A stretch of 64,000 nucleotides of DNA, taken from contig JBLNBS010000070.1 of NCBI GenBank assembly GCA_050260175.1, positions 3,379 through 67,378 of the forward strand. The letters are read 5' to 3'. Position 1 is the stretch's first letter; each line of letters starts with the position of its first letter. The notes below the pieces were generated by a model. That model was not told where the DNA came from and did no database searches. It saw only the letters and a program-made list of their open reading frames with translations. Positions 5,467 through 54,431 of this stretch are shown here, piece after piece. Both the position numbers and the translations under genes were made by a program. Source of the stretch: Patescibacteria group bacterium. GTDB taxonomy: Bacteria; Bacillota; UBA4882; JAAYXC01.

Positions 5467-5479
5467 GGATAAATGCCCG

Positions 5480-6918: not shown

Positions 6919-7140
6919 ATGAAAAGACAGAACGTTACTGAAGCGGCGTTTTTCGAGGATGGCTTGGTTCCGATCCCAGATGCGGCGCGATTCCTTGGGC
7001 TCGGGATCACAAAGGTCTACGAGTTAATGGGCAAGGGCCAGCTACCGTTCGTCTTGATCGACCGTTCCCGGCGGATCCGGCGAAGCGACCTTCGGCGGTT
7101 CGTAGAGGAACGGCGCCGCGGCGGGCAGGCGGCGAGCTGA
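6919..7140 (+). CDS. AlpA/excisionase-family HTH DNA-binding protein
   Basis: Short protein; AARFLGLGITKVYELMGKGQLPFVLIDRSRRIRRSDLRRF resembles the excisionase/MerR-type winged helix. It sits next to and divergent from the integrase gene. Confidence 0.55.
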   Translation: MKRQNVTEAAFFEDGLVPIPDAARFLGLGITKVYELMGKGQLPFVLIDRSRRIRRSDLRRFVEERRRGGQAAS

Positions 7141-7152
7141 GGAGGGATCGAG

Positions 7153-7419
7153 TTGGCGTGTGATGCCGGCGCTCATCATGATCCCGAAGGCTACCTGCTT
7201 CTTCCGCGGCAAATTCGGCGGACGCTCAAGACGGCCGGATTGGTCCTCGAGTGCTACCACGAAGAAAGCCTGGGGAAGATCATTGAGCTGTCTTGCCGGC
7301 GATGCGGGCGCGAGTGGGCGGTTTTCCGCATGTCAGACGGCCGCTATGTCCGTTCCTGGTGGCGCTGTCGGAACGGGTGCAACCTGCCAGGCCGACGGGC
7401 CAGCACGAAAGGGGGATGA
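7153..7419 (+). CDS. Small Cys-rich (zinc-ribbon-like) protein; TTG start after GAGGAGGG
   Basis: CRRCG...CRNGC motif pairs with a strong RBS upstream. No family assignment is possible. Confidence 0.35.
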   Translation: MACDAGAHHDPEGYLLLPRQIRRTLKTAGLVLECYHEESLGKIIELSCRRCGREWAVFRMSDGRYVRSWWRCRNGCNLPGRRASTKGG

Positions 7420-7426
7420 GCTGACG

Positions 7427-7603
7427 ATGGGCGATGTCATCCTTTTGCCTGCCCTACGTAACGGCCAGCTATGCCCAATGTGCTTCCAACACCCGGTCTT
7501 ACCGGGCCGGCTGTGCTGGACGTGTGAGCACTTGATGGATTCCGTGGAGGGATGCCTTCGCCGCGAGGAGGAACGGGAGAGGGCGATACCCCATGCAAAA
7601 TAA
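7427..7603 (+). CDS. Small zinc-ribbon protein
   Basis: CPMC...CWTC motifs. The ATG at 7427 is preceded by AAAGGGGGA. Confidence 0.3.
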   Translation: MGDVILLPALRNGQLCPMCFQHPVLPGRLCWTCEHLMDSVEGCLRREEERERAIPHAK

Positions 7604-7655
7604 AGAAAACGCGCCCGGCGGAAACGGGCGCGGCGACGAAGGGTTGGTGACAAGG

Positions 7656-8717: not shown

Positions 8718-8749
8718 CGGTCATTCCTGGAATAGGGAGGAGGAGCGCA

Positions 8750-8950
8750 ATGCGGCGCGAGATACCGGGATTCGTGCCATTCCGCTGTCTGAAGTGCGCA
8801 AGTCATCTCGTGTGGCTGATCGGGCGGTCCTCGATTTGGTGCTCAGGGTGCCAAAGGCACATCGGCTGGGAGGAGTTCGAGCGAAGCCCGAGTGGCATGG
8901 AGACACTGCGGCCGGCCAGGGATGCATCACACACAATCATCTCTCGCTGA
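8750..8950 (+). CDS. Small zinc-ribbon protein
   Basis: CLKC...CSGC motif pairs. The ATG at 8750 is preceded by GGGAGGAGG. Confidence 0.35.
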   Translation: MRREIPGFVPFRCLKCASHLVWLIGRSSIWCSGCQRHIGWEEFERSPSGMETLRPARDASHTIISR

Positions 8951-9281
8951 ATCTTAATCGCAGGTAGAAGGCACGTCACGAGGAGTTTTCGGAAACCAAC
9001 TTAAAAACAAAGCCACGATAGATCTATTGCCCAGCTAGACTGCGGGGCGTGGGATGCATCACAAGGCGTGAAAATCGAAAACAGGTCAGCGAGGGATGTT
9101 TACCAGATTTTTCCTCCCCCCCTCGGGTTCGGGTAGGGCGGCCAGGCGATGACCGGAAGGGGGAGGCTTCCGACTCGTACAGGCCGAAATTTCAAATTTT
9201 TCCCATGGATTCGAGGCCGCACGAGCCTGGTCCAGGAATTTCCTGGAAGAATGGACATTTTGCCGATTTCGGGAATCAAGC

Positions 9282-9310
9282 TTGACGGCTCATCGGGGAC
9301 ATGCTATAGT
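9282..9310 (+). promoter_or_regulatory. Strong candidate sigma-A promoter driving the RHH to tape-measure to capsid block
   Basis: TTGACG -35 box, 17-nt spacer, TATAGT -10 box, located after a ~400-bp non-coding gap. Confidence 0.5.
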
Positions 9311-9331
9311 ATTACCGATAGCATTACCGAT
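9311..9331. promoter_or_regulatory. Two direct repeats ATTACCGAT just downstream of the -10 box (candidate operator)
   Basis: ATTACCGAT at 9311-9319 and 9323-9331, between the promoter and the RHH gene. Confidence 0.4.
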
Positions 9332-9364
9332 GATATTCGCTTATAGACTATGAGGAGGATTCCG

Positions 9365-9841
9365 ATGGGCGATACTTTCAGTGTCAAGCTCCCGGCCGGT
9401 CTTCCCCTGGCCGACATCGACGCGGCAGCCGCGGCGCGGGGATTGAACCGCAACCAATTCGTAATCGATGCGATCGGGCTTCTGGCGGTCCTCACTCCCG
9501 AGTTCATCCAGGCAGTGGATCACTTCGCCGCCGGCCTTCGGGTACCGCGCGCGACGGTGATTGAGGCGTTCACGATCCGCCGCCTAGCGGAACTGAAGGC
9601 AAAGGCGACGGTTCACCCGCGCTATAGCGAAGCTCTGGATGAGATCATGCTCTCTTCGCGGGGCGCCATTCTTGGGCAAGAACTGCTTGCTACACTTACA
9701 AACCAATTCGCCCAGCGGGAGCGGGACCGCCTGACCCGGGCCGAACGGGCGAAGAACCCCAAGCAAACGGCGACCGGCGCCGGCATCCCGCCCGAGGCCG
9801 ACGAAGACGAGATAGTCACGCAGGGTGAGTTGGATGAGTAA
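9365..9841 (+). CDS. Ribbon-helix-helix (CopG/Arc-like) domain protein
   Basis: The N-terminus FSVKLPAGLPLADIDAAAAARGLNRNQFVIDAI fits the RHH beta-strand plus two helices. RBS GAGGAGG precedes the ATG at 9365. Confidence 0.4.
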   Translation: MGDTFSVKLPAGLPLADIDAAAAARGLNRNQFVIDAIGLLAVLTPEFIQAVDHFAAGLRVPRATVIEAFTIRRLAELKAKATVHPRYSEALDEIMLSSRGAILGQELLATLTNQFAQRERDRLTRAERAKNPKQTATGAGIPPEADEDEIVTQGELDE

Positions 9842-9996
9842 AAAAATCGCGCTGGTTCTGCTCATCCTGCTGATTGTGTGGCTTTTCAGGTCCCCCCGTG
9901 GGCGCCTGGTCACAGGAAGGCTAATCTACTGGGTGGCTTGGAACATCGGTTGGGCGGTTGAGCTTGTAAAATTGATTATTTTTGGGGGCGCTAAGG

Positions 9997-12552
9997 ATGG
10001 CGCTGCTGGGCAAACTCGCCGTCGCCGTAGTCGGTGACATCAACCAGCTCAAAACCTCTTTCCGCGAGGTCAAGAGAGAGTCCCAGTCTTTGGGGAGAGA
10101 GGTTCAGAAGTCCGGTCTGGGCCTTCAGCAGATCGCCAAGTATGGCACGATGGCCGGCGCGGCGATCGTATCGGCCATGGGCGCCATGACCATCGCCACT
10201 ACCAAGAGCGCGGAGGAGATCGATCTCCTCAGCAAAAGGACGGGCGTATCCCGCGAGGAACTGCAGGGCCTTGCCTACGCAGCCCAGCAAGAGGGCACGG
10301 ACATACAGAGCCTCGGAACGGCCCTGGCCCGGCTTTCGCAAAACATGTACGACGCGAGCCAGGGGACCGGCGAGGCGCGTAAGGCTTTCAAAGACTTCGG
10401 CATCGTTGTCACGGATGGACAGGGGCGCCTCCGGTCTTCTGCAGACGTGCTCATGGACCTGGCCGATCGCATGAGGGGTATGACCAACGAGACCGAGATG
10501 TCTGCCCTGGCCATGAAAGTACTTGGCCGTGGCGCGCAGGATTTGGTACCGTTCCTCCGTATGGGCCGGGCGGAGATCGAACGGCTCATCGAGGAGGCGC
10601 GACGGCTCGGATACGTCATCGGTGAAGAGGCAACAAAACAGCTCGAGGCCCTGGGGGACGAGCTTGACGCCATTAAAATAGGTTTTGCCGGGTTCGGTAG
10701 GCAAATCTCGGCGGACCTTGTGCCAGTTAATCTTGCCTTCGCCCGCGGCCTCAAGGAGATTTTGATGTGGATTCATGCGATCCCTGCGCCGATTCGCAAG
10801 CTGGTGACGGTCGGCTCCCTATTGGCAGGGACAATCGCCCTGATTGGGGGCGCCCTGTCGTTACTGGTTGTCAAAGCCGCAGCGGCCCGCGCGGCCTTGC
10901 TGGCTTTGGGCACATCGTTTGGGCCATTCCTTATTGGCGGAGCCGTCGTTGTCGGTATCGGAGCAGCCGTCAGTTTGATCGGTGAAATCGCCCAGCGTGT
11001 CAAAGTGATAAAAGGCGATCTCGACGATATGTCACGCAATACACTAGAAGCCGAACTCATCAAATGGGAAGCCAGGCTGAAAAAGGCGCGAGAAGAATTA
11101 CGAAAAACAGAAAAGATGGTCGGGCAAAAATATGATCCCAAGAAAAATACTGACATGTTGGGGCCGTTATATATCGGTGGTATTCTTGATGAAATTGAAG
11201 TCGCCAATAAAGCAGTCGCTAATCTCAAAAAGAGATTGAAAGAACTTGGCGAGGAAGAGCCTGCGGCTGGCACAGAGAAATGGTCCCTGACCGAAACCCT
11301 CGCCAAAGCCAAGAAAGAGCTTGCCGACATCGACAAGATAGCTGATGCCTTCGGCGACAAGAGCCAGGTAGCCGCCGACAAGATAGCCGTGCTCAAGCGC
11401 GTCATCGTTGACCTGATCGAGCATGGATATGACCCGACAAAGACCAGCCTGGGGAATCTCATCGCCATGTACCAGGCATATGCCGAGGCCTCCCAGGCCG
11501 CCACCGACGCCAAGGAGCGGGAAAAGAAGGCGACCGATCTCCTCACGCAAGCCCAGCAGGCACTCAACGGGGAGACCTACCAAGATATCTCCGCACTGGA
11601 GACCCTGCGCGCACAGCTTGAGGCGCAGGCAGCCGTGGATACGGAACGCGCCGATTCTCTCAGGGCGGCGGCCGCAGCCCTGAACGTCCTGATCCTATCT
11701 CTGCGCCAAGCGACCCAGGACGAGCAGAACGCCGCGGAAGCGACGGAACTCCTTGCCCAGGGGCAAGCCAAGCTGGCGGAGATGACCGGCCAAGCGATCC
11801 CGGAGTGGGAGACGTTCGCCCAGAAGCTCGAGGAGGCCGCCGCGGAGTCCGGCGTCCTGCCGGAGACGGCCGAGGCCCTGCGCGACCTGGCCGCGGCGAT
11901 CCGCGAGGCGGGCCTGGCCACCGTGGAGATCGAACCCTATGATTTCGAAACCGCCTTCATCGCCGGCCTGCGGGACACGGCCAAGGAGTGGAAGGACTTC
12001 CTGGACCACGTGCGCGGGGGCGCGGCGGACTTGGCACAGACCATGAACCAGACCCTCAACGACTTCTTCTTTGACGGTGTGACCGCTCAGCTCAAGAACC
12101 TGGGCGACTATGCCCAGCAGGTATTCAACTCCATCGCCCGCAGTTTCGCCAATATGCTCTCGGACATGTTAATGAACTGGCTGATGAGCGGCTTCACCAA
12201 CATATTTGGCGGCGGGTTCTTTGGTGGCGGGCCGGTTGGTATGCCCTGGCCGTCTTATATCGGTACCATGGCCGAGGGTGGGACCGTGGCGGCGCGGGCG
12301 GCCTACCTCGTGGGCGAACGCGGGCCTGAGTTATTCGTCCCGCAGCAGTCCGGGACCATCATCCCCAATGACGAGATCGGCAGTCTCTCCCCTAAAGTTA
12401 CAGTCAACCTGATTAATCAGTCCGGCACTCCCCTGCAGGTAACGGACCGCAGAACCGAGGTTGACGGCGAGCAGGTAGTCGCCACACTCTGGCTTGGCGC
12501 CTACTCGAAGAACAAGGGCGGCCTGCAGGACGTTCTTGGCGGGGGGCGATAA
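9997..12552 (+). CDS. Phage tail tape-measure protein (TP901-family-like)
   Basis: 852 aa, highly helical. The N-terminal core TGVSREELQGLAYAAQQEGTDIQSLGTALARL...FKDFGIVVTDGQGRLRS resembles tape-measure cores. Central hydrophobic segments and a long coiled coil follow. The C-terminus carries the conserved GERGPELFVP motif. Confidence 0.65.
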   Translation: MALLGKLAVAVVGDINQLKTSFREVKRESQSLGREVQKSGLGLQQIAKYGTMAGAAIVSAMGAMTIATTKSAEEIDLLSKRTGVSREELQGLAYAAQQEGTDIQSLGTALARLSQNMYDASQGTGEARKAFKDFGIVVTDGQGRLRSSADVLMDLADRMRGMTNETEMSALAMKVLGRGAQDLVPFLRMGRAEIERLIEEARRLGYVIGEEATKQLEALGDELDAIKIGFAGFGRQISADLVPVNLAFARGLKEILMWIHAIPAPIRKLVTVGSLLAGTIALIGGALSLLVVKAAAARAALLALGTSFGPFLIGGAVVVGIGAAVSLIGEIAQRVKVIKGDLDDMSRNTLEAELIKWEARLKKAREELRKTEKMVGQKYDPKKNTDMLGPLYIGGILDEIEVANKAVANLKKRLKELGEEEPAAGTEKWSLTETLAKAKKELADIDKIADAFGDKSQVAADKIAVLKRVIVDLIEHGYDPTKTSLGNLIAMYQAYAEASQAATDAKEREKKATDLLTQAQQALNGETYQDISALETLRAQLEAQAAVDTERADSLRAAAAALNVLILSLRQATQDEQNAAEATELLAQGQAKLAEMTGQAIPEWETFAQKLEEAAAESGVLPETAEALRDLAAAIREAGLATVEIEPYDFETAFIAGLRDTAKEWKDFLDHVRGGAADLAQTMNQTLNDFFFDGVTAQLKNLGDYAQQVFNSIARSFANMLSDMLMNWLMSGFTNIFGGGFFGGGPVGMPWPSYIGTMAEGGTVAARAAYLVGERGPELFVPQQSGTIIPNDEIGSLSPKVTVNLINQSGTPLQVTDRRTEVDGEQVVATLWLGAYSKNKGGLQDVLGGGR

Positions 12553-12554
12553 CG

Positions 12555-13325
12555 ATGCCGGCTTTTATTGAACCGCTGCCGCGCGGTACGGGGAACGCTG
12601 TGGTGGTTTGCCACAAAGCGCGATGGGCTCTCGTCCAGGATGACGAATTAAGGCGAAACATTCTCCTCCTCGCGCGGGAGTTTTTCCCGCTGGAGCATTG
12701 GCTTGCCCTGCGAGAAGGCGACCGCCTGGTTTATTGGCGCGTTGATGATCGATACCATCCCGGTAAAAACTTGGCCCTGGACGCGACTTGGTCGGCCACC
12801 GCGCCAACGCTACCAACGAACCCCGAAGACAGGCACGCGGTACGGCTGGGGCGAATTGTTGGCGTCCTCCCGGATCGGAGGCTTTGCTTCATCAGGGACT
12901 TGGCAACAGGCAGGGAGATCCTTTGCCACGCGCGGGCCGTTATACCCGCCAGTGATTGGTCTATGCTGACGGTAGGGACTCTGGTGTCTTTTTGCGCCGA
13001 TTACGATCGGCTCCATCCAGGTCTTTTCCGCGCCGTTGTTGTTCAGCGTGGCAATGCAGAGGAAATTCACGCCGGCCTCCCCGGGGTTCTCGTGGCCGCC
13101 GCCGATCCCCCGGTCGAGGACGGCCAGAAGGCCACAAAAAGCGAAGAGACCACCAGTGCCGCCGGTGTTGGCGGCGGCTGTGGCATAGAACCCGGGTTCC
13201 GCTGGAGAGCGGACCTGCCGCGGCCTGTTGGAGAGCAGGGAAACGGCCTTGCCGAACTACCACGAGGCCACCGCGCAAGAGTTGGAGAACCCTTGCCGCG
13301 GGCGTTGGAGAACGCGGCCGGATGA
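12555..13325 (+). CDS. Hypothetical protein; the 3' extent is uncertain
   Basis: Start codon overlaps the tape-measure stop (ATAACGATG). No recognisable domain. The C-terminal half is compositionally odd. Confidence 0.3.
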   Translation: MPAFIEPLPRGTGNAVVVCHKARWALVQDDELRRNILLLAREFFPLEHWLALREGDRLVYWRVDDRYHPGKNLALDATWSATAPTLPTNPEDRHAVRLGRIVGVLPDRRLCFIRDLATGREILCHARAVIPASDWSMLTVGTLVSFCADYDRLHPGLFRAVVVQRGNAEEIHAGLPGVLVAAADPPVEDGQKATKSEETTSAAGVGGGCGIEPGFRWRADLPRPVGEQGNGLAELPRGHRARVGEPLPRALENAAG

Positions 13326-13379
13326 ACGGACGGCAGGAGGGTGAATGGAACCCCAAAAACAGGAAAGGGAGTGTCACGG

Positions 13380-14642
13380 ATGACACCTGATGAGATTCGG
13401 GCTGCGATCGCGGAAAAGGGCGAGCAGAAACGCGCGTTACTCAGGCGGATTGACAAAGCCCCCGTGGAGGAACTTAGAGCGATCAATATCGGCCTGGAAA
13501 ACCTGAACGCGGAAATCGCCGATTTGCAGCAGCAATTGGCCGAAAGCGAAGCCCAGCGGACGCCTGGCGGCCCTGTGGGTCGGATGCAGATCTTGGGTAC
13601 CTATGGAATCCACCCCGCCGCCGGCAACGTCGCGGGCACGGGCGCCATGCGGGAAGAGTTCCGCGCGGCCCTCGAGGAAAAAGGCAAGGCGCTTCTCGAG
13701 CGGCGCGCGGTGATCTTTACACCCGAGGAGATCGCGGAAGCACGGTCCATCACAATCGCTACTACCGGGATCGTAACAGGCAAGGCCGTCGATCCGACGA
13801 TCGCCCCCGCGCCCCAGCAGGTGAGCGCGCTGATCGACATGGTAGACGCGCCGACGATGATTGGTGCCGAATCGTTTGCCAAGCCGTTCCTGGTCAGCGT
13901 AGGGGAGGGCGATTACACCGGCGAAGGTTTAGACGCCGCGGAAGCGGAACCGACCTTTGGATCGGTTACGATTCAAAAGGCGAAAGTGACCGCGTATGCC
14001 GAATTTTCCGAGGAAATGCGCAAACTGTCGCCGATTGACTACGCCGTGGCCATCATCGGCGGGGTTCGGGAAGCCGTGCGAAAAAAACTCGGCCGGCAGA
14101 TCGTTGTCGGCTCCGGTGGTGTCAATGCCCTCGTTGGCATCTATAACGCCCCGGAGGCCGTCATCCCGGCCGCGTCGGACCTGGAGATTGGGACCGTCGA
14201 TTCGGAGACACTCAACAAGTTAATTTTCGGCTTCGGCGGAGATGAGGCCGTGGAAGGCGAAGAGGCCGTCCTGATCCTGAACAAGCTGGACCTCAAAGCC
14301 CTCGCGGATCTTTATGGAAACGATGGTCGAAACCTTTACGACATCCAATATGCCGGCGCTACTGGGTTTATCACTAACCGCGGGGGCGGCGGGATGAAGA
14401 TTCGGTACGTCATCAACGGCGCATGCGGCGTTCTGAGCGACCCGGCTACAGTCGCAGGTGCCAAAACCATGTTGTTCGGCTATGCCAAGGCCTATACCCT
14501 GTGTCAGTTCAGCGGCCTCGAGGTCCAAGAGTCATCCGAGTACCTCTTCAAGAAGGGCATGATTGCAGTGCGGGCCGTTGCGATGGTTGGCGGTAACACG
14601 GCGCGGTACAAGGGTTTCGTCCGTGTCAAGAAAGCGGCCTAG
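13380..14642 (+). CDS. HK97-fold major capsid protein-like protein with an N-terminal coiled-coil delta domain
   Basis: About 420 aa. The first ~100 aa are coiled coil (scaffold-like delta domain). The C-terminal part has the glycine-rich, beta-rich pattern of HK97-family capsid proteins (GFGGDEAVEGEEAVLILNK...ITNRGGGGMKIRYV...). AAGGGAG RBS precedes the start. Confidence 0.5.
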   Translation: MTPDEIRAAIAEKGEQKRALLRRIDKAPVEELRAINIGLENLNAEIADLQQQLAESEAQRTPGGPVGRMQILGTYGIHPAAGNVAGTGAMREEFRAALEEKGKALLERRAVIFTPEEIAEARSITIATTGIVTGKAVDPTIAPAPQQVSALIDMVDAPTMIGAESFAKPFLVSVGEGDYTGEGLDAAEAEPTFGSVTIQKAKVTAYAEFSEEMRKLSPIDYAVAIIGGVREAVRKKLGRQIVVGSGGVNALVGIYNAPEAVIPAASDLEIGTVDSETLNKLIFGFGGDEAVEGEEAVLILNKLDLKALADLYGNDGRNLYDIQYAGATGFITNRGGGGMKIRYVINGACGVLSDPATVAGAKTMLFGYAKAYTLCQFSGLEVQESSEYLFKKGMIAVRAVAMVGGNTARYKGFVRVKKAA

Positions 14643-14795
14643 CGGCGCCCTGAGAACCTCGTGGAGTTACAGCGCGCCCGGTTCACGCCGGGCGCGCCTA
14701 CGGTTCCCGCGTGATCCCGGCCTTTTCGTTCGTCCTTGGCAGGGCGGCAGCCGGGGGCGATGAACCCCCGGCCGCCGGCAAGAGGAGATGATTCC

Positions 14796-15407
14796 ATGGA
14801 CCGCTACTTCGTTGACAAGGATGGCTATGTGTACAGATACGATGGGGAATTAGAGCGGCCAGATCCCGAGATCACGGAGGCACTTGCCGAGATCACCCTG
14901 GCCCGCCATCAACGGTTCCCTTTCCCCCTGCCCGCCGACTGGCCGCGGTTTAGAGCCTTCATTACCTCTAGCGGTGAGGTGTACGTTGCCGAAGCGCCAC
15001 GCAACGAAGCAGATAAGGACATCTCCTGCCGGCTGCCAAAGTACCACGTATCACCGACGTACATCACTCCGTCTGGCGATTGCTATAACGGCGACAGGCA
15101 GAGCGAAGAGGACATCGAAGTTCCTCCCAAGCCTCCTTTCCATAGGTGGGATGGCCAGAAATGGGCCTTCGACATTGAGGTGTACCGTCAGGAGTATCTG
15201 CGGCCCCGGCGTAATGCCCTGTTGGCCGCGACCGATTGGACGGACCTACCTTCCGCTCCGCTTACGGCGGAACAGAAGGCGGCCTGGCAAACTTACCGGC
15301 AGGCTCTACGGGATCTCCCCGAAAAGACCACAAGTGCCGAAGTGGCCTGGCCGGAGATGCCGATGAAAATCCAAACCCTACCTGATTTAGGAGGTCTGAT
15401 AGCATGA
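14796..15407 (+). CDS. Phage tail fibre assembly (Tfa)-like protein
   Basis: The C-terminal motif NALLAATDWTDLPSAPLTAEQKAAWQTYRQALRDLP...WPEMP matches the conserved Tfa/gpG C-terminus (W..YR..L......WP..P). RBS AGAGGAG precedes the start. Confidence 0.45.
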   Translation: MDRYFVDKDGYVYRYDGELERPDPEITEALAEITLARHQRFPFPLPADWPRFRAFITSSGEVYVAEAPRNEADKDISCRLPKYHVSPTYITPSGDCYNGDRQSEEDIEVPPKPPFHRWDGQKWAFDIEVYRQEYLRPRRNALLAATDWTDLPSAPLTAEQKAAWQTYRQALRDLPEKTTSAEVAWPEMPMKIQTLPDLGGLIA

Positions 15408-16213
15408 GCGGCGCCATCAAAGTTTCCGGCGCGACGTTTCTCCATTTATGTTATCATCCCACTATCCACGAGTCTCAGCCCGTCGAACACCTGGGCGTGA
15501 AGCCGTGGGCCATAGGACGGTCATACGAGTTCGGAAAGACCGCCAATCCGCACAAAAAATTCATTGATTCGCGGCTCTTTGGTATTAAGAATCCCCACAC
15601 AGGGAACATTCATTTTTTGAATCACTTAATACAAGAGATATATTCATTTGGGAAAACAGGTCAAAAAGACTCCGTGATATCCACTTTTTACCACTATGAC
15701 CCGCTTATCGCATTCCATGAGGCTAATGTTTTAATTTATGAACTGCTCTATATCATCCGCGAACAAATCTTTGAGGAGGTCAGGCGGGAGCGGTTCCCTT
15801 CGCTTCCTTCCAGGGAAACATGCCTCTTCGCCTTGAATGACAGCGAGAAAGATCTTGATTATTGGATAAACAATCTGCTTGGCGGCCGGGCAGCGGCCGA
15901 AGGTAAAGAATCCTTCCCGGTTACCCTGGTTAAAATCAGGTTCACCGGGAAGGTGTTCAAAACAAACCGCTTGACCGGTGTGTTTCTGCCGCTGGTTTCT
16001 GCGGGTCCGGATTATTGGCGCGAACAAGCGGGCAAGTACTGGTCGGGATCCGTCCCAGACTCACCAGACGCGGAAGAGGTTCTTCTTGGGGAAGGCGTAG
16101 GCGTGGTCGAATCTATTTCTCCGATCGAGTGGCGCGTGGATCCTGTGCAGTTCAGTACGGCGCGAAAGGCCGAACTGGTCCAGACTACCTTGGTCCCGGC
16201 GGCAGGAGGTTGA
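15404..16213 (+). CDS. Hypothetical protein in a low-GC island (cargo/moron candidate)
   Basis: The 5' two-thirds is markedly AT-richer than its surroundings. The start overlaps the upstream stop (ATGA). No family recognised. Confidence 0.45.
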   Translation: MSGAIKVSGATFLHLCYHPTIHESQPVEHLGVKPWAIGRSYEFGKTANPHKKFIDSRLFGIKNPHTGNIHFLNHLIQEIYSFGKTGQKDSVISTFYHYDPLIAFHEANVLIYELLYIIREQIFEEVRRERFPSLPSRETCLFALNDSEKDLDYWINNLLGGRAAAEGKESFPVTLVKIRFTGKVFKTNRLTGVFLPLVSAGPDYWREQAGKYWSGSVPDSPDAEEVLLGEGVGVVESISPIEWRVDPVQFSTARKAELVQTTLVPAAGG

Positions 16214-16291
16214 TTCCAGATTAACTACATACGCTGCGCCAATCCGAACTGCTCCACCCTGTTTGACTCCCGGTGCGGCTCTGTTTGTTCA

Positions 16292-17209
16292 GTGTGCCGT
16301 GCGGCCCAGGCGGCGGGGAAGCTGCCCTTAGAATTTCCCAAGATTGAGCCAGCCGCTACAGTCACTCCCGCAGGATCGGGAAGTCTCGTCACATATTTCC
16401 CGGTGCACCATGGTTCCCTGGGCGTCCAGATACGAGGCGCGGAATATTCATGGGTTCGCTATACTTCGGGGTTCTCCGCGCCGCCCGACGTGGTGGACCT
16501 TTGCACGGTCTACCATACGTGGTCCCTTGTCGGGATGAGTTATCATCAATGGGGCAGGATTATTGTTCGACCCAAGTCCTATGTTGGGCTTTATTCGACC
16601 CCCCGATGTCACAACGATCTATTTGATGATTTTCACGCCATAACAAGAGTGGATCTCGAAATGATGGAGAAATGGGGCCGAGAAAACAATTCGTTATTTG
16701 ATTGGCGGTTGTCTTCTTCGAATCCACCAAATGGACGCGGACCTAAACAATTTGGCGAAAACGCGATTATTCCGATTTGTATTGCCCAAATACCCGAAGG
16801 TTTCCTCAAGGTTTTTTATGGCGGTGTTCATTCGTTTGGGTTGAACTGGGAATTCTCACCCGATGGTAGATTCAGCAGCAATACGGAACCTCCAACTGCG
16901 GAAGACAGCAAAATGCTGTATGAACGCGCGTTCCGGATCAAGGCCGCGAAAATGCTCTGGTTGACTGATTGGACTACCCGGGCTGATGCACCGCTGACGG
17001 AAGAGAAACGCGCAGCCTGGGACGCATACCGCGCGGCTCTTTACTGCCCAGACGAGATCCTTTCGGGTGCCCGGGAGATGCCGCGGATGCCGGCAGGCCG
17101 GGTCCTTAATCCGAGGTGGGACTCAGCACCGATGGAAATCTGTTGGGACACCTGGTGGAAGTTCAGGGAGCCGGCTGGCAACGCAGGTGATTTTCCCTTG
17201 GCTGAGTGA
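16292..17209 (+). CDS. Hypothetical protein with a Tfa-like C-terminal motif; possible Cys-rich N-terminal extension from 16214
   Basis: C-terminus AAKMLWLTDWTTRADAPLTEEKRAAWDAYRAAL repeats the motif of the 14796 gene. The in-frame upstream stretch encodes RCANPNCSTLFDSRCGSVCSVC. Confidence 0.4.
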   Translation: MCRAAQAAGKLPLEFPKIEPAATVTPAGSGSLVTYFPVHHGSLGVQIRGAEYSWVRYTSGFSAPPDVVDLCTVYHTWSLVGMSYHQWGRIIVRPKSYVGLYSTPRCHNDLFDDFHAITRVDLEMMEKWGRENNSLFDWRLSSSNPPNGRGPKQFGENAIIPICIAQIPEGFLKVFYGGVHSFGLNWEFSPDGRFSSNTEPPTAEDSKMLYERAFRIKAAKMLWLTDWTTRADAPLTEEKRAAWDAYRAALYCPDEILSGAREMPRMPAGRVLNPRWDSAPMEICWDTWWKFREPAGNAGDFPLAE

Positions 17210-17247
17210 CGGTCCGTTTCGATCGGCAGCACCATGGAGGGTGAGAG

Positions 17248-17703
17248 ATGGCCGCGAGAACGCCGGGTGATCTCCTGCTGAGTTACGATGAGATCCGGCT
17301 GGTCTATAACACCCTGGCCGGCGTCCCGAACAAGTCTTTGCCCGCGGCTGAACTCCTGGGCAAGCTCTATCGGGCCATCGTGGTCCGGGCATCCCAGGAA
17401 GAGCGGGCGGAATTGGCCGCGCGGATCCGTGCCGGCGTGAACTATGCCGGCCGGCTGTGCCCGGAGTGCGGCCGGGGCCTCGAGAAGATCGCCGGCCAAG
17501 ATGCCTATGGCTGTCCCAAATGCGGCGGCGAGTGGTGGCCGGCGGACTCGAACGAGGCGCCGATGTCGGCGGCGGCCTTGTGGCAGGACGAGCAGCGGGT
17601 GAAGCGAGCCCTGATCGACCCGAACTCCCACGGCGGCGGCAAAAAGGGAGGTCGGCGTCAAAAGCAAAAGAAGCCGCCGCCAGTGCCCTGGTACCAAAGA
17701 TGA
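17248..17703 (+). CDS. Zinc-ribbon protein (CPECG...CPKCG) with a basic C-terminal tail
   Basis: Cys pairs spaced for a zinc ribbon, with a Lys/Arg-rich C-terminus. Confidence 0.4.
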   Translation: MAARTPGDLLLSYDEIRLVYNTLAGVPNKSLPAAELLGKLYRAIVVRASQEERAELAARIRAGVNYAGRLCPECGRGLEKIAGQDAYGCPKCGGEWWPADSNEAPMSAAALWQDEQRVKRALIDPNSHGGGKKGGRRQKQKKPPPVPWYQR

Positions 17704-20222: not shown

Positions 20223-20298
20223 GCGCCCGTAGCTCAGCGGATAGAGTGCCGGACTACGAATCCGTAGGCCGCTGGTTCAAATCCAGCCGGGCGCGCCA
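20223..20298 (+). tRNA. tRNA-Arg (anticodon ACG), including CCA
   Basis: Acceptor GCGCCCG/CGGGCGC, anticodon loop CTACGAA, T loop TTCAAAT. Confidence 0.8.
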
Positions 20299-35019: not shown

Positions 35020-36594
35020 TTACAGCAGCTTCTTTAACGTATCCACGGGCGCGTAATCGTCCGTGAGGAGCAGGGCGCTCCGCAGGGCCTCCTCGCCCGC
35101 GGCCGCCCGGTCTTCCACCAGCATCTCGGCGAATGCCGGCACGGCCTCGGTGATCTCACCCGTGTTATGGAGCCTCTTGGCCTCGGCGATCCAGTCCATG
35201 GCGCTCCAGCGCCTTACCTGCTGCGTGCCCACGAGGATGATGTTCTGCACGGCCCGCCAGTCGGCCATGCCGGAATAGCCGATGGGAAAGAGGTAGATCT
35301 GGGGGAAGGCCGTGCCGTAGGTCCGCGCCATGGCGCGCACGAGCAGGCTGTCCGGCCCGATCACCGAACCGATCAGGTTGGCCGCCACCACCCCGTCCGG
35401 CGCGAGGATCGCCCGAAGCGAGCGGCAGAATTCCAGGGTGGTGAGGTGGTAGGGCACGGTGTCCGCGTTGTAGGCGTCCACCAGGACCAGATCGTAGGGT
35501 TCCGCGCGGCCGGCCGCGATCTCGCGGGCCAGACGATCCACGTAAAGACGGCCGTCCTGCACGTTGATACGCAGGCGGGAATCGTCCACGGGCAGCCGGA
35601 AATAACGCCTGGCGACGGAGACGACTGCCGGATCGATCTCCACCACGTCCACGCGCGCCAGGGAGGGGTAGTCATGCAGAAAGCGCGTGACGGCCGAGCC
35701 GCCCCCCAGGCCGATGAGGAGCATGCGGCGGGGCCGGGGCCGGGCCACGACCCCGAGGTGGAGGTAGGATGTGTACTCGAAGTTCGCGCGCAGGGGATCA
35801 TCCAGGTACATGCCGCTCTGCCAGGAATTGTCGAAGTGGAGGTGGCGCTCGTTGCCCACTTCATCCACGACGATGTGATGGTAGAGCGAGTCGGCGGTGT
35901 AAAGGGTCCTGGCTCCCCAGGTCCCGTGTGGGCCGTACGCGGGAGGCGCGAACCGCCAACCCAGGGCCAGCAGGATGATGGCCCCGAGCGTGGCGCCTGC
36001 CAGCGGCAGCCGGCCGCGGCCGCGTTCCCTGCCGAGCGCGATGAAGGCCAACAGGGCCAGGATCAAGAGAACCAGGCCCAGGGCATGCACGATATTGCGC
36101 ACGCCCATCACGGGGATGAGAAAGAAGGACGTCACCAGGGTGCCGAGGATGCTCCCGCCGCTGGAGATGGCCGCCATGCGGCCCGCCGTGTTGCCGATCG
36201 TGGCCATGCTGCGGCCGGCCAGCTTGATGCCGAAAGGCGAGATCGTGGCCATGAACAGGCTGGGCAGAAAGAAGAATGCCGTCGCGGCCAAAAGCGTCCC
36301 GAGGCGCGGCTCCAGCCCGTCCAGGAGACGATTGGCGGGAGCGGTCCACAGGGGCAGGATCCCCGTGAGCAGACCGGCGGCGGCCAGGATGGCCGCCATG
36401 GCTCCGGGCCTTGGGAAACGGTCGGCGATCTTGCCGCCGAGGTAGTACCCCAGGGTAAGAGCGGCCATGACCACCGTGATGAGCGAACCCCAGACGTAGA
36501 TCGAGGTGCCGAAGGTCGGCGCCAGGAGCCTGCTGCCGATCATCTCCAACGACATCAGGACCGCGCCGCTCATGAAGACCAGGATATAAAGCAT
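35020..36594 (-). CDS. Fused membrane-domain/spermidine-synthase-like polyamine aminopropyltransferase
   Basis: Seven or eight N-terminal transmembrane helices followed by a SpeE-like domain (LLIGLGGGS...VDVVEIDPAVV...VDAYN). Confidence 0.7.
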   Translation of the reverse strand: MLYILVFMSGAVLMSLEMIGSRLLAPTFGTSIYVWGSLITVVMAALTLGYYLGGKIADRFPRPGAMAAILAAAGLLTGILPLWTAPANRLLDGLEPRLGTLLAATAFFFLPSLFMATISPFGIKLAGRSMATIGNTAGRMAAISSGGSILGTLVTSFFLIPVMGVRNIVHALGLVLLILALLAFIALGRERGRGRLPLAGATLGAIILLALGWRFAPPAYGPHGTWGARTLYTADSLYHHIVVDEVGNERHLHFDNSWQSGMYLDDPLRANFEYTSYLHLGVVARPRPRRMLLIGLGGGSAVTRFLHDYPSLARVDVVEIDPAVVSVARRYFRLPVDDSRLRINVQDGRLYVDRLAREIAAGRAEPYDLVLVDAYNADTVPYHLTTLEFCRSLRAILAPDGVVAANLIGSVIGPDSLLVRAMARTYGTAFPQIYLFPIGYSGMADWRAVQNIILVGTQQVRRWSAMDWIAEAKRLHNTGEITEAVPAFAEMLVEDRAAAGEEALRSALLLTDDYAPVDTLKKLL

Positions 36595-36815
36595 GTCATC
36601 ACTCCATTCATGCTGTTGCACATGGCATGATTACGAAAGATCGGCTCTTTCTCCGCCGGCGCCGGATCAGGCTATTCCACGAACAGAAACGGTTTGGGCT
36701 GGTCCGGCTCAACCGGCAACCGCTTCAGACGCAGACTGCCGGTGATCTCCTGCAATGAACGAACGATCTCTTCCGCCGCCTTCATGCCGCGCCACATCGC
36801 CACGAGCAGAAGGAT

Positions 36816-37122
36816 GTCATATTCGAAATCGGACCCCTTCCGATTTCGAATTACCTTACTGCGCCTTTGCTCGCCATGAATCACGGCGGCAAAGGCGTAA
36901 CAGGCCCGATATGCGACTTTCATATTCGAAATCGGACCCCTTCCGATTTCGAATTACCTTACTGCGCCTTTGCTCGCCATGAATTACGGCGGCAAAGGCG
37001 TAACAAACCCGATATGCGACTTTCATATTCGAAATCGGACCCCTTCCGATTTCGAATTACCTTACTGCGCCTTTGCTCGCCATGAATCACGGCGGCAAAG
37101 GCGTAACAGGCCCGATATGCGG
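36816..37122. repeat. Tandem repeat: three copies of a ~104-bp unit with two strong internal stem-loops
   Basis: Unit starts at 36816, 36920 and 37023. Copies differ at three positions only. Each unit holds a 12-bp perfect palindrome TTCGAAATCGGA-CCCCT-TCCGATTTCGAA and a second long hairpin CGCCTTTGC...GCAAAGGCG. Confidence 0.85.
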
Positions 37123-37131
37123 CCCCGGGTT

Positions 37132-37965
37132 CTACGCAAAGGCAAGGCCCAGTTCCCCCGCGACCTGCCGGAGATGGGCAGCGGCGGCCGCGTAGTCCCC
37201 GGCCGTGCCGAGGTGCTCGATGATCAAGGGCATATCGGGTTCGAGCGACGCCAGACAGGTGAGATAGGCGCGGTAGTCCAGGCCCCCCAGGCCGGGACGG
37301 ACCTCGTCGAGATGGACCGTGAGCCTGCCGGAAAGGCTGATGTCCTTGGCGTGGCAGCTCTTGATCCATGGTCCCAGCTTGGCGAAGCATTCCCTGATCA
37401 CGGCGGCGTTGTCGAAATACCGCGCCGGGCTGTTGATGATGTTCACGGGGTCCAGGTGCACGGCGAATCGCGGACGCCCGACGGCCTCGATCAGTTCCAG
37501 GTACGAATCGGCCGAGTCCGGAAAGATCCACGGCATGGGCTCCAGGGTGTAAAAGGTGCGGCTGGGCTTGACCGCGTCGATGATCGACCGCACGGTCTCG
37601 ACGATGAGATCGAACGTGTCGCGGGCCAGGTTCGCGGGATGCGGCCCGTCCCACTGGCTGCCGCGCGAGCCGGCGATATTGACGCAGCAGCGCGCGCCGA
37701 TCCGGTCGGCCAGGGCAAGCCGCTCCCGGCAGAGCTCAAGGGCCTCGCGGCGCGTCTTCTCCTCCGGGCTCAGGGGATTGCTCCAGGCCCCCACCTCGGC
37801 GATGACGATGCCGGCCTTCGCGGCTGCCCTGGCGAACGCCGCCGCGAGATCGTCACCCTCACCGCCCGCCAGGGGGCAGATGCCGGCGGTGTATCCCAGG
37901 GCGCGCAGGGAGGCGATCCAAGCCTCCGGGTCCCTGGTCTCCGCGACTGGCCCGCCCAAGCGCAT
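37132..37965 (-). CDS. Sugar phosphate isomerase/epimerase (xylose-isomerase-like TIM barrel)
   Basis: Family-typical pattern with conserved acidic and histidine residues (EHLG, HLDP). Confidence 0.7.
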   Translation of the reverse strand: MRLGGPVAETRDPEAWIASLRALGYTAGICPLAGGEGDDLAAAFARAAAKAGIVIAEVGAWSNPLSPEEKTRREALELCRERLALADRIGARCCVNIAGSRGSQWDGPHPANLARDTFDLIVETVRSIIDAVKPSRTFYTLEPMPWIFPDSADSYLELIEAVGRPRFAVHLDPVNIINSPARYFDNAAVIRECFAKLGPWIKSCHAKDISLSGRLTVHLDEVRPGLGGLDYRAYLTCLASLEPDMPLIIEHLGTAGDYAAAAAHLRQVAGELGLAFA

Positions 37966-41322: not shown

Positions 41323-41559
41323 AGGCGTCGTGAACAACCCATTTTCGACCGGTAAACAAGTAAAACATGGAACGTTATCACATGATTTACATGATTAACA
41401 GGATTAACGAGATTCGGGATCTACGGTCATTGACAAAGACGATTAATAGACAAAGAATTCGTGTAAATCCTGCAAATCATGTTAATCCTGTCAAATATTG
41501 TTCTAATTCGATCTGGTTGTGACGTTACTGTAGAAAGCAAAGTACGGGGAGATGGGCGG

Positions 41560-42540
41560 ATGCCGGCCAACCTCACCCCGCAGTACATGGCGGCCGAGGC
41601 GGCTTTTAAGGAAGCCAGGACCACGGAGGAGAAGATTCACGCCCTCGAAGAGATGCTGGCCGTCATCCCCAAGCACAAGGGCACCGAGAAACTGCAGGCC
41701 GAGATCAAGAGCCGCCTGGCCAAGCTCAGGCAGGGCAAGGAGCAGGCCTCCGCGGCCAAGGGTCCGGATCCGTTTCACGTGCCGCGCGAGGGCGCCGGGC
41801 AGGTGGCGCTCGCGGGGTACCCCAACACGGGCAAGTCCTCGCTTCTTGCCGCCTTGAGCAGGGCCAAGGTCGCCGTGGGGGATTACCCCTTTACCACCGC
41901 CCTGCCCCAGGCTGGGATGGTGCCTTTCGAGGATGTCCAGATCCAGCTCGTGGACACGCCTCCGGTCCTGGCCCAGGAAATGCCGAGCGGCCTGGCGGGC
42001 ACCCTGCGTATGGCCGACGCGCTGCTCATCGTCGTCGACCTGGCCACGGACGAGTGCCTGGAGCAGCTCGAGGGCACCCTGGCCATCCTGCGGCAGCGCC
42101 ACATCCTGCGCAGCGAGGACGAGTACGAGGCGCCGCACACCAAGGCCATGGCGGACTGCCTGATCGCGGGCAACAAGAGCGACGCGGAGGGCAGCGGGGA
42201 GCGCCTGGGCATCCTCGGGGATCTGCTCCCGCCCGGCACGGAGATCCGCCCCGTTTCGACCAGGACCGGCGCGGGGCTGGCGGAGTTGCCGCACCGCCTC
42301 TTTGACCTCCTGGGCGCGATCAGGGTCTACAGCAAGCTGCCGGGCCGGGAACCGGATCTCCGGGCGCCCTTCACCCTGCCGCGGGGGAGCACGGTGCTGG
42401 ACATGGCCGCGGCCGTGCACCGCGACTTTCCGTCCCGCCTCAAGAACGCGCGCCTGTGGGGCTCGGCGCGCTTTCCCGGCCAGTCCGTGCCCAGGGACTA
42501 CGTCCTGGCTGATCGGGATATCGTGGAGTTGCACGTCTAG
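41560..42540 (+). CDS. Obg/DRG-family GTPase with a C-terminal TGS domain
   Basis: G1 [10 protein letters not shown]2 FTT, G3 DTPP, G4 NKSD, then a TGS-like C-terminus (IRVYSK...[15 protein letters not shown]). Confidence 0.65.
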
Positions 42541-51580: not shown

Positions 51581-53725
51581 GTGACGACGTACGAATACGA
51601 CGCCCTTGGGCGGCAGACGGGACTGAAAGATGCCAAATACAATGCCGGTCAAACCACGGCCCAGACCGTCATGGCCTATGACTCCCTGGGCAGGCTGCTC
51701 GACAAGACCGACCCCTACGCCGGTCACACGACCTATCAATACGATCTCGTCGGCAACGTGATCGCCAAGACCGACGCCAAGGGGAGCAAGCTGATCTACG
51801 CCTACGACGCCTTGAACCGCCTGGTCAGCAAATCCGTTTTGCGCCCGGGTGAATCGGTGCCGGTCGTTCTTTCCACGCTGGTTTACGACGAGACGACGCG
51901 TACTTTTGGCATCGGCCGGTTGACCAGCACCTATCTGGGCTCGTCCACCCAGGACGGTGAGTACGATTATGACGCCGAGGGCAACCCAACCTACACCACG
52001 AAGTATATCGACGGTACGGCCTATATCACCCGGGTGGAGACCGATCCCCTGGGCAGGATGACCCGCCTGACCTATCCGGATGGCTCCATCGTCGACTACA
52101 CATACGAGGCCGGGGCATTGAAAACCGTGGGTTCTTACGCCACTTACAGCAACTGGAACGCCGCCGGCCTGCCGCGGGATGTGGACTACGGCAACGACAC
52201 AGAAACGACCTATACTTATGATCCTCAAACACTGCGACTGGCCAACCTCGAAACCCGCGCCCCGGGAGGCACGGTGATCCAGTCCTACGCCTACAGCTTC
52301 GACCCCGTGGGCAACATCACAGCCATCACCGACAACGCGCCCATCACCTCGCTTCATACAATCAGTGTCAGCCAGAGCTTTACCTACGACGCCCTGAACC
52401 GCCTGACCGGCTCCAGCGTCTGGGGTTCCTATGCCTATGACGAGGTCGGCAACATCACCGCCAAGGAAGGCATAACATTCACCTACACCGACCCCGCGCA
52501 TCCCTACTGCCCGACCGGGGGCAGCAGCGGCTACCAGGCGAGCTACGATCCAAACGGCAACCTGGCGGAGAAGACGGACAAGAATGGCGTCCACTGGCGG
52601 TACGTATACGACGATGAAAACATGCTGATCCAGGTCTATAAGACACCGGCGGGAGGGTCCGAGGGTCTGGTCGAGGAATATACCTATGGAACGGATGGAC
52701 TAAGAAGCCGGAAGGTCAATCATGAGGGTGGCCAAGCGGTAAGCACATCCTACGTTTATCTCGGTTATAACGTCCTTTACGAAAAGACCGGGGAAACGGC
52801 CGCGCGGTACATCCTGGCCAATGACCGGGAGATCGCCAAAGTAGCCGGCAGTGAGACATACTACACGCACCGGGACCATCTGGGGTCGTCGTCTGTGGTA
52901 ACCAATGGGTCAGGTAGCGTTGTGGCCTGGAATGCCAATCACCCGTATGGCGATGAGTGGATCGTCGGACCGGGGGCGGATGTGGACCGGCATAGGTTCA
53001 CGGGTAAGGAGACAGATGCAGGAACTGGGTTGGTATATTTCGGGGCGAGGTATTATGATACGGAGATCGGGAGGTTTACGACAGTTGATCCAATACAAGA
53101 TGGATGGAATTGGTATGAGTATTGTCGATCAAATCCATTGACATATATAGATCAAAACGGCTTTTATCCCGCCATAGGTTCCAGCGCTCAAGAAGAACAA
53201 AAACTAAGAGGTAATGGATATACAGAAACTAAAACAAATCCGGATGGATCGATCACAACGACAACAACAATTTATCGTGGTTATTATGGTACAGATGTGA
53301 CCATTATCCAAGATAAAAGATCAAAATATTTTCCATTTGGCACAAGAATAGTTACTGAAGTTCATGCAACATTTAATATTATTGATACCAATCAAGAAGC
53401 ATATAATCTTAATCGATTAGATAATATATGCAATTGGTTTAAAGACGGATTGATGATCGTTGGCGGTTATGTTATAGCTGAACCGTTTGCGTTATTAGGG
53501 ATATTGAATTTCGCTGCCGATGCTTTTACTTCATTCGGTAGCGGCCAGCCTACTTATGAAAAAGGGGATGTTGTTTACGAGGTCAATGCTACAAGAGATT
53601 CTTATACCTTTCCATTCCTTCATACCTCACAGACTATGCAGTATATCATCATCGTGAAAAGCGATAAGGTATTGATTATAGAAATTACTAATAGCTTGAA
53701 TTATGGAGGCGGGTTTTATCAATGA
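51581..53725 (+). CDS. RHS/YD-repeat protein fragment (5'-truncated) with the RHS core and a low-GC C-terminal toxin domain
   Basis: YD repeats (YEYDALGRQ, YQYDLVGNV, YAYDALNRL and others) and the RHS core (YYTHRDHLGSS...RFTGKETD...ARYYDTEIGRFTTVDPIQ...NPLTYIDQNGF). The last ~190 aa drop sharply in GC. An in-frame stop at 51494 and the end of the upstream SpoIID gene at 51476 leave no room for an N-terminal domain. Confidence 0.75.
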   Translation: MTTYEYDALGRQTGLKDAKYNAGQTTAQTVMAYDSLGRLLDKTDPYAGHTTYQYDLVGNVIAKTDAKGSKLIYAYDALNRLVSKSVLRPGESVPVVLSTLVYDETTRTFGIGRLTSTYLGSSTQDGEYDYDAEGNPTYTTKYIDGTAYITRVETDPLGRMTRLTYPDGSIVDYTYEAGALKTVGSYATYSNWNAAGLPRDVDYGNDTETTYTYDPQTLRLANLETRAPGGTVIQSYAYSFDPVGNITAITDNAPITSLHTISVSQSFTYDALNRLTGSSVWGSYAYDEVGNITAKEGITFTYTDPAHPYCPTGGSSGYQASYDPNGNLAEKTDKNGVHWRYVYDDENMLIQVYKTPAGGSEGLVEEYTYGTDGLRSRKVNHEGGQAVSTSYVYLGYNVLYEKTGETAARYILANDREIAKVAGSETYYTHRDHLGSSSVVTNGSGSVVAWNANHPYGDEWIVGPGADVDRHRFTGKETDAGTGLVYFGARYYDTEIGRFTTVDPIQDGWNWYEYCRSNPLTYIDQNGFYPAIGSSAQEEQKLRGNGYTETKTNPDGSITTTTTIYRGYYGTDVTIIQDKRSKYFPFGTRIVTEVHATFNIIDTNQEAYNLNRLDNICNWFKDGLMIVGGYVIAEPFALLGILNFAADAFTSFGSGQPTYEKGDVVYEVNATRDSYTFPFLHTSQTMQYIIIVKSDKVLIIEITNSLNYGGGFYQ

Positions 53726-54015
53726 AAGTTGGTTTCGCGGCTTTTTTATGGTTATTATTTACATTTTTTGGATATTTTCTAAATACTAAGTTTATACTTC
53801 ATTATGAATCAAATTTATTACATATGATTTTTAAGATCAATAATAGATATTTATATAGATTTATTCAATCATTATGGCGCATGACGGTTGCAACAGGATT
53901 TTATTTGTTATTAATTTATAGTACTAAGTTATTTTATCGATATATTTACTTTGCTTTATTAAGTTTCACGCTTGGTTTATTATTAAGTAAAAAAACATTT
54001 ATGAAATGTCGGTGA
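53722..54015 (+). CDS. Putative RHS-toxin immunity protein (low-GC, membrane)
   Basis: Start overlaps the toxin stop (ATGA). Very AT-rich; three or four transmembrane helices. Confidence 0.4.
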   Translation: MKVGFAAFLWLLFTFFGYFLNTKFILHYESNLLHMIFKINNRYLYRFIQSLWRMTVATGFYLLLIYSTKLFYRYIYFALLSFTLGLLLSKKTFMKCR

Positions 54016-54431
54016 TTACTATATCCTGAAGTCGGAGGACAAGCAAAGCCCCAAAGGACCGCAAAGGAAAACCGTCTCCTGCTGTAGCCGGGGAGGCGGT
54101 TTGTTATCAGGAATCTATCTCCACTCAGGATGGGCTTATAGGCGGCGATGTACATGGAGGTACCCAAGCCGCCACCGAATCCCCGCAGGGATTTGAGAAC
54201 GCTTTTGAGGCGGTGTGAAAAACCCGTCTCTCTACCCGGGGGGCTGCTTTGGACCATCCTTGGTCGTCGCTGCCTTTTACCCATCGTGGGTATGAGGTGA
54301 ATCCCCAGGCTACAACTGAACGATTTTCCAAAGCCCTGTCCGGCCCGCTTTGAGACATCCGTGTCCGTCGCGGGCTTCAATCCCTTCTGGGCTGACCTGA
54401 CAGGGCTCGGATAGTCTTCGAAGTTACACCG

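Follow-up and report, generated by a model that had tools for sequence, protein, structure and literature searches.

What is an array of three almost identical, hairpin-rich units doing between two genes of a bacterial chromosome, and how did it come to be there? The question is raised by a short intergenic region within a 64-kb stretch of bacterial DNA, the whole of which was analyzed here and is hereafter called the window. A sequence-only reading of the window had pointed out the array and had offered, as possible identities, a tandemly amplified small RNA or riboregulator, a REP/MITE-like element caught expanding, and a set of protein-binding repeats. Here we describe the anatomy, folding and genomic setting of the array, and weigh these and further explanations against each other.

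Architecture of the array

TRF analysis of the window detected a single tandem array at 36817-37121 with a period of 103, 3.0 copies, 97% matches, 0% indels and a score of 589, which is by far the strongest tandem repeat of the window, the runner-up scoring 75. Three head-to-tail copies had been described before and three were found, but the period is 103 rather than ~104 bp, and the bounds given earlier, 36816-37122, are one base too wide at either end. A base-by-base comparison resolved the array into three 99-nt modules and two ACTT linkers, 305 nt in all or 3 × 103 − 4, because the final unit lacks the ACTT that links the other units. The units are as follows.

36817-36919, no strand assigned: unit 1 (type A), a 99-nt module plus the ACTT linker at 36916-36919; equal to unit 3 over 99 nt
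36920-37022, no strand assigned: unit 2 (type B), a 99-nt module plus the ACTT linker at 37019-37022; the sole carrier of variant positions
37023-37121, no strand assigned: unit 3 (type A), a 99-nt module alone, directly abutted by the right flank GCCCC with no ACTT

Direct comparison showed that copies 1 and 3 are identical across the 99 nt and that all three variant positions, the only ones that had been claimed, lie in copy 2 (36985, C>T; 37006-37007, GG>AA). The first of them is located in the loop of the second hairpin described below and the other two in a weak outer helix of 3-4 bp. The identity of copies 1 and 3, together with the 97% matches over the array, agrees with the earlier conclusion that the units were amplified or homogenized recently. 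Alignments of the unit with each flank, made on both strands, all fell within the shuffle null and showed no significant similarity. The repeat unit is thus unlike both of its flanks and was not copied from neighboring sequence.

Two stable hairpins in each unit

Each unit contains two hairpins, which recur at the same place in the three copies.

36821-36851, again at 36924-36954 and 37027-37057, no strand assigned: hairpin 1, a perfect 13-bp stem with a 5-nt loop
36860-36899, again at 36963-37002 and 37066-37105, no strand assigned: hairpin 2, a GC-rich stem of ~15 bp with a 9-nt loop region

Hairpin 1 had been described as a 12-bp perfect palindrome with a 5-nt loop; it is indeed perfect and its loop is of 5 nt, while the stem is of 13 bp. 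Its sequence is ATTCGAAATCGGA-CCCCT-TCCGATTTCGAAT, so that the loop reads CCCCT on the plus strand and AGGGG on the minus strand. With DNA parameters it folds at −13 kcal/mol (z about −6 to −6.7), and the 31-nt sequence occurred three times in the window against 0.00 expected in shuffles. The second, extended stem-loop was likewise recovered by folding, its stem carrying one bulged T and one G.T pair (z of −4.2 on the plus and −5.6 on the minus strand with DNA parameters). The two hairpins have no sequence in common, as nhmmer recovered only the self-complement of each palindrome.

The folding of one entire unit was also highly non-random. The energies were −45.7 kcal/mol for the plus strand and −50.1 kcal/mol for the minus strand, whereas the means of the shuffled sequences were −23 and −29, giving z scores of −7.15 and −6.60, respectively, and none of 200 dinucleotide shuffles folded as well. 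The variant sites of copy 2 give conflicting hints as to the strand: the minus-strand CC>UU change (37006-37007) keeps G.U pairing on the minus strand only, in the weak outer helix, while the loop-edge C>U change (36985) keeps G.U pairing on the plus strand only. They are therefore uninformative as to whether the stems carry an RNA or a DNA signal.

Genes around the array and coding capacity

The array sits in a co-directional string of minus-strand genes in the order gatD, murT, isomerase, array, speE-like gene, DUF4139 gene and ybaK-like gene. The domain matches bear out the placing of the array between a spermidine-synthase-like gene and a sugar phosphate isomerase gene. The genes and open reading frames at the locus are listed below.

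37132-37965, minus strand: xylose-isomerase-like TIM-barrel sugar phosphate isomerase/epimerase (Pfam PF01261, E = 1.2e-18, in line with its NCBI name)
35020-36594 (or 36621), minus strand: the downstream gene, encoding a fused membrane/spermidine-synthase-like (speE-like) protein (Pfam PF01564, Spermine_synth)
36672-36797, minus strand: orphan 41-codon ORF in the unique spacer, with a coding-like GC1/2/3 of 0.62/0.38/0.76
36672-36923, minus strand: 83-aa "hypothetical protein" MGE5528786.1 of the NCBI annotation, a chimera whose N-terminal 42 codons come from units 2 and 1

As read on the minus strand, the isomerase gene lies upstream of the array, and its stop codon is 10 nt away from it. 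On the other side, 195 nt of unique sequence lie between the array and the speE-like gene, or 222 nt when the gene is taken to start at the ATG at 36594, which is preceded by GGAG; the exact 524-aa product from this start is also encoded on the Logan contig L018.

The array itself has no coding capacity. Its period of 103 is not a multiple of 3 and stops occur in every frame; when all frames of the unit were joined into one query, which should also pick up false ORFs predicted on copies in other genomes, no match at E<=10 was obtained in 5.8 billion predicted proteins. The repeat-derived half of the 83-aa ORF has a GC3 of 0.60 versus 0.85 ± 0.06 for genes, and a coding-like profile appears only in its last 41 codons (36672-36797). 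The overlapping ORFs of the array are thus artefacts, as had been suspected, and MGE5528786.1 calls for caution in annotation because much of this protein is read out of the repeat. The 41-codon ORF in the unique spacer found no homologue but itself among 1.84 billion representative proteins; on this weak evidence it may be a small gene or a relic of one.

We also noted a series of short overlaps beside the array. The last unit, when read on the minus strand, finishes with ATGA, the ATG of which opens a 12-codon ORF that closes with a TGA at 36784-36782. This TGA overlaps, again as ATGA, the ATG (36785-36783) of a 37-codon ORF beginning MKAAEE, which lies upstream of the spermidine-synthase-like gene. 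The overlaps at 36782-36820 could be due to chance or could form a chain of translational coupling.

Possible origin and effect of the array

The explanation that we favor, though tentatively and a little short of an even balance, is that the array is a young, lineage-private and non-coding intergenic minisatellite, in which a 99-nt module with two palindromes was amplified in place and whose stem-loops would act, in a manner like REP/BIME, in read-through transcripts. It appears to be an ordinary minisatellite of a kind frequent in bacteria, and nothing points to a gene, a known RNA or a widespread mobile element.

The arithmetic of the array constrains the way in which it may have grown. Because three modules and two linkers make 3 × 99 + 2 × 4 = 305 nt and not 3 × 103 = 309 nt, a simple duplication of one 103-nt segment does not fit. 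Instead, two copies of the module would first have become linked in an illegitimate event, with the 4-nt ACTT as a filler. Once the period of 103 nt was established, a third copy would have been gained by replication slippage or by unequal homologous exchange, and two mutational events in the middle copy would have come last. The palindromes, acting at the DNA level, would be the probable cause of the amplifying slippage.

As to expression, no sigma-70-type promoter was found on either strand between 36300 and 37500, and the same interval contained no hairpin-plus-T-run terminator-like site on either strand. Since the array has no promoter of its own and begins 10 nt past a stop codon in a co-directional string, its expression, if any, would be by read-through; and since the hairpins lack U-tracts, a role as terminators is unsupported. 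The read-through RNA would carry two very stable stem-loops per unit (about −50 kcal/mol), six in all. Their most likely effect would be to block 3'-to-5' exonucleases and so to stabilize the upstream message, and to damp transcriptional or translational read-through into the downstream gene. Such an effect on the mRNA is proposed by analogy with REP/BIME clusters and other 3' stem-loops. REP clusters, most of which follow coding regions and many of which are repeated in tandem together with DNA that flanks them, have been reported to hinder 3' exonucleases and to damp read-through, plausibly as RNA hairpins (PMC3733652).

Comparison with known classes of repeats

In form, the array is closest by analogy to a REP cluster or BIME. 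In the passages of PMC2817692 and PMC3733652 that describe these elements of Proteobacteria, they are intergenic, usually located just downstream of a coding region, built of palindromes with 5-13-bp stems, and arranged as tandem two-hairpin units of roughly 100 bp, to which a function as RNA hairpins or as binding sites for proteins is ascribed; all of this resembles the present array. Judged by the usual stem of 5-13 bp and loop of 2-20 nt (PMC3733652, Table 1), hairpin 1 with 13 bp and 5 nt is a palindrome of the REP type, and hairpin 2 has about 15 bp and a bulge. However, a BIME contains one REP in alternating orientation, whereas the two hairpins of the array are mutually unrelated. In addition, the unit and the junction between units are free of the REP tags GTAG, CTAC, CGTC and GACG, a second locus was found neither in the window nor in the searched collections, and no RAYT was found among the window ORFs scanned. 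The host is also probably a Firmicute, and Firmicutes are not among the phyla for which PMC3733652 lists GTAG or CGTC repeats.

The MIRU-type VNTRs of mycobacteria offer another likeness, being near-identical tandem repeats of tens to about 100 bp between co-directional genes, which, like the array presumably, vary in number. MIRUs contain an internal ORF that is linked to the gene downstream of it through a −4 overlap, ATGA (PMC12548453). Read on the minus strand, the unit of the array likewise closes with ATGA. However, the frame that runs into the terminal TGA is interrupted by a TAA, past which it holds no start codon, and the ATG begins nothing longer than the 12-codon ORF described above; MIRU-style coupling was thus rejected. 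Moreover, MIRUs occur at many loci and the unit of the array was seen at one.

BOX elements of Streptococcus pneumoniae are also modular and intergenic, with a boxB of about 45 bp that is tandemly reiterated and with stable stem-loops that affect the expression of neighboring genes; their architecture is always A-Bn-C, and they are dispersed in more than 100 copies. The array resembles them as an intergenic, tandem stem-loop module of a Firmicute, but differs in having neither sequence similarity to BOX nor dispersal.

Several other classes were set aside. A CRISPR array is ruled out, in agreement with the earlier reading, as the head-to-tail units follow directly on one another, with 0% indels and without unique spacers. 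The array is not an integron cassette array either, another point on which that reading was correct: hairpin 2 has the form 5'-GTTAC...GTAAC-3', the reverse of the attC arrangement R''(RYYYAAC)...R'(GTTRRRY), and no IntI integrase was found, the sole integrase of the window being of the phage type, 30 kb away and beside a tRNA gene. A template or variable repeat of a DGR, and an iteron or centromere, were rejected on anatomy.

Search for further copies and the mobile-element explanation

Neither BLAST-short nor nhmmer --max detected another full, partial or diverged copy of the unit in the window, in which about 35 further intergenic regions measure 60 nt or more. Outside the window, the hairpin-1 stem pattern was searched for in 185,579 GTDB representative genomes, giving two matches, both by chance and inside coding sequence, and in JGI metagenomes, giving 10 loci with unrelated hairpins that have the 11-mer stem alone in common. 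IMG/VR gave no match for hairpin 1 and none for hairpin 2. The scans of GTDB, JGI and IMG/VR required an exact match to the 22 stem bases of hairpin 1, so that diverged relatives would escape them, and the window's own locus was absent from the scanned collections, indicating that the lineage is unsampled there and that the absence of copies says little about the rest of the genome. The blastn search of the repeat against plasmids (PLSDB) and phages (INPHARED) returned nothing, and the junction between the isomerase and speE-like genes was kept in none of the six contigs of relatives that we inspected, so that no ancestral state, whether an empty site or a single copy, was visible. With no second locus in the 64 kb or in the searched collections, the presence in hundreds of copies that would have marked the array as a generic REP was not observed.

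The metagenome loci are worth describing in their own right. Loci L005 to L013 share the same 11-mer stem (TTCGAAATCGG...CCGATTTCGAA) and differ in loops and flanks, and hairpins of this type were more numerous than 22 fixed bases would yield at random. The hairpins of L006 and L011 form part of larger, nested palindromes of REP-like appearance.

The search bears most directly on the strongest rival of the minisatellite, which we nevertheless consider unlikely: that the module is a non-autonomous mobile element (a MITE, a REPIN or a derivative of IS200/IS605) which was mobilized in trans by a transposase from elsewhere in the genome and landed repeatedly next to itself, so that the array would mark an insertion hotspot and not slippage. 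MITEs and the palindromic elements derived from IS200/IS605 (REPINs, PATEs) are, like the unit, of ~100 nt, non-coding and rich in hairpins, and the module is sharply delimited at 99 nt, with a linker that is always of 4 nt and with flanks unrelated to it. Its hairpins are subterminal and one of them has a bulged base; bulged subterminal hairpins occur in elements cut by HUH/Y1 transposases. The GC content of the module, 51% versus 64% for the window, also speaks for this rival, but 51% is inside the range of the window's ordinary intergenic regions. Tandem REP clusters and families of under 20-100 units have also been documented (PMC3733652).

On the other hand, the marks of transposition were not found. 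The ends of the unit match at only 6 of 8 bases, and a putative third hairpin spanning the unit junction, the candidate for terminal inverted repeats, was not significant (z = −1.3). Target-site duplication is absent, the flanks being GATG and GCCC and the linker ACTT, and no transposase or RAYT domain was present among the window ORFs scanned. Together with the absence of a REP tag and of dispersed copies in the window and collections, this weakens the proposal that a REP/MITE-like element was caught expanding: REP remains the closest analogy in form, but membership in such a family is poorly supported.

The array in sequencing reads

Because the array is contained in full in a single assembly, the NCBI MAG contig of 67,901 nt, we consider whether its three copies are a mis-assembly of two copies, of a longer (A-B)n-A array or of two merged alleles. 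We used Logan unitigs (k = 31) of the runs SRR24035586 and SRR24035584, both of which carry the identical isomerase gene. The unitigs of both runs begin at window position 37092. This is where the last 31-mer with a single occurrence in the window starts, those from 37091 downwards occurring twice. A break at this position is what is expected if the reads hold both the flank-to-unit and the linker-to-unit contexts, and because two independent read sets break at the predicted 31-mer, at least the duplication is real. An outright assembly artefact, which would have undone the earlier description, is unlikely for the same reason.

The number of copies stands on different ground. It rests on one MAG contig, the short-read unitigs breaking at the array, and an array of the form (A-B)n-A would give the same shortest graph path, A-B-A. 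The Logan contig L018 (SRR24035586) stops at 36802, which is 15 nt outside the array and not 30 nt inside it, and the 31-mers at its end are unique in the window; this end is possibly a coverage gap at the hairpins or the point, 36802/36803, at which a second allele diverges, the latter of which would suit the merging of alleles. Against these points, the variants of copy 2 should make A-B-A resolvable with k or reads of more than about 115 nt. Given this and the agreement of the two runs at the predicted 31-mer, we regard a wrong copy number as quite unlikely, if somewhat less so than the explanations that follow.

Regulatory RNA, protein-binding sites and other explanations

Could the units instead be genes, or parts, of a regulatory RNA? 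In this alternative, the array would be a set of small regulatory RNA genes or a multi-unit structured RNA processed into units, for example with the plus-strand CCCCU loops pairing with Shine-Dalgarno sequences or with the minus-strand AGGGG loops mimicking them. C-rich-loop sRNAs and tandem sRNA paralogues do exist in Firmicutes, such as RsaE/RoxS and LhrC, and the very stable, highly non-random folding and the 5-nt CCCCU or AGGGG loop of hairpin 1 would fit. However, there is no promoter-like or terminator-like site on either strand, and a period of 103 bp is tight for a promoter, an RNA and a terminator. No Rfam family reached its gathering score with the 2-kb region or with the array alone, and at E<=10 only spurious eukaryotic or Xanthomonas matches of 14-17 bits appeared, with no family of the RsaE type. 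With no homologues elsewhere there is no covariation to consult, and both strands fold equally well, as DNA palindromes should. The tandem small RNA or riboregulator proposed earlier has thus lost ground, and we hold it to be improbable.

A protein-binding array seems to us slightly less probable still. The 13-5-13 palindrome would then be an operator or a centromere-like site, and the array would support a nucleoprotein structure that regulates the downstream gene or organizes the DNA. The genome is GC-rich, yet the arms of hairpin 1, a perfect dyad, are rich in AT; the regular spacing of 103 bp corresponds to 9.8 helical turns and is near integral, and tandem units each with an inverted repeat are known from plasmid centromeres such as sopC. 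But no regulator or partition gene adjoins the array, it lies in a chromosomal setting among metabolic genes, the window has no other such site, and hairpin 2, which makes up most of the unit, would be left unexplained.

Just as doubtful, in our estimation, is a bolder idea, namely that the 99-nt two-hairpin module founds an undescribed class of structured elements in Limnochordia-like Firmicutes, either as a new type of non-autonomous mobile element inserting head-to-tail with a 4-nt linker or as a multi-unit regulatory RNA with a Shine-Dalgarno-like AGGGG or an anti-Shine-Dalgarno-like CCCCU loop in every unit.

Finally, a type III toxin-antitoxin-like system, in which the repeat RNA would be processed by and would neutralize a toxin encoded just downstream, is called to mind by direct repeats that immediately precede, in the same orientation, a small orphan ORF and then a larger gene, but is scarcely credible here and was rejected, since the downstream proteins are that orphan 41-aa product and a spermidine-synthase-like membrane protein and not an endoribonuclease of the ToxN/AbiQ type, no terminator separates the repeats from the gene, and the units are of 103 nt while known type III antitoxin repeats are of about 34-45 nt.

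If the array is, as we prefer to think, a minisatellite amplified in place, its import beyond the locus is small: it would be one more palindromic minisatellite of bacteria, usable as a strain-typing (VNTR) marker. It would be more significant only if the module turned out to be a dispersed family, in a phylum with few described REP-like elements, or the source of a discrete RNA.

Host lineage and other features of the window

The best homologues of the spermidine-synthase-like protein belong to MAGs of Limnochordales and other Bacillota, at about 60% identity; the best non-self identity was 61% (Limnochordales) for this protein and 73% for the isomerase. This points to a high-GC, Limnochordia-like Firmicute as the probable host, and the label "Patescibacteria group bacterium" of the MAG looks wrong in view of the 64% GC, the encoded MurT/GatD and the Limnochordales-like gene.

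The Logan contigs L002 and L001 match the window exactly up to positions 38004 and 41316, respectively, and are out of register from there onward. This suggests that the sampled populations differ by indels or in structure, both in the spacer between the isomerase gene and murT and in the spacer of 38% GC at 41323-41478.

A prophage remnant or integrated element occupies 5391-17703, adjoining a tRNA gene (5391-5463). Its genes have a GC3 of 0.57-0.73, lower than the rest of the window, and include those listed here.

5480-6808, minus strand: phage-type integrase
7593-8717: Rep_O-like protein
9982-12552: minor-tail/tape-measure protein
13341-14642: major capsid protein
within the same region: tail-chaperone-like protein

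A second tRNA gene lies at 20223-20295. Further along, a protein with RHS repeats is encoded at 51581-53725 (Pfam RHS_repeat, E = 5.5e-33) and is followed by an intergenic region of 22% GC (53726-53945) and a small ORF of low GC3, so that 51581-54380 looks like the tip of a polymorphic toxin with its immunity module.

Another repeat-bearing region is the AT-rich (38% GC) intergenic sequence at 41323-41502, just upstream of an ORF at 41479-42540 that looks, by eye, like an Obg/DRG-type GTPase. It contains a 9-bp repeat, ACATGATTA, in 3.9 copies (41380-41414) and an 18-bp repeat in 2.2 copies (41462-41502), the repeats reaching the first bases of the ORF, and it may be an operator or promoter region.
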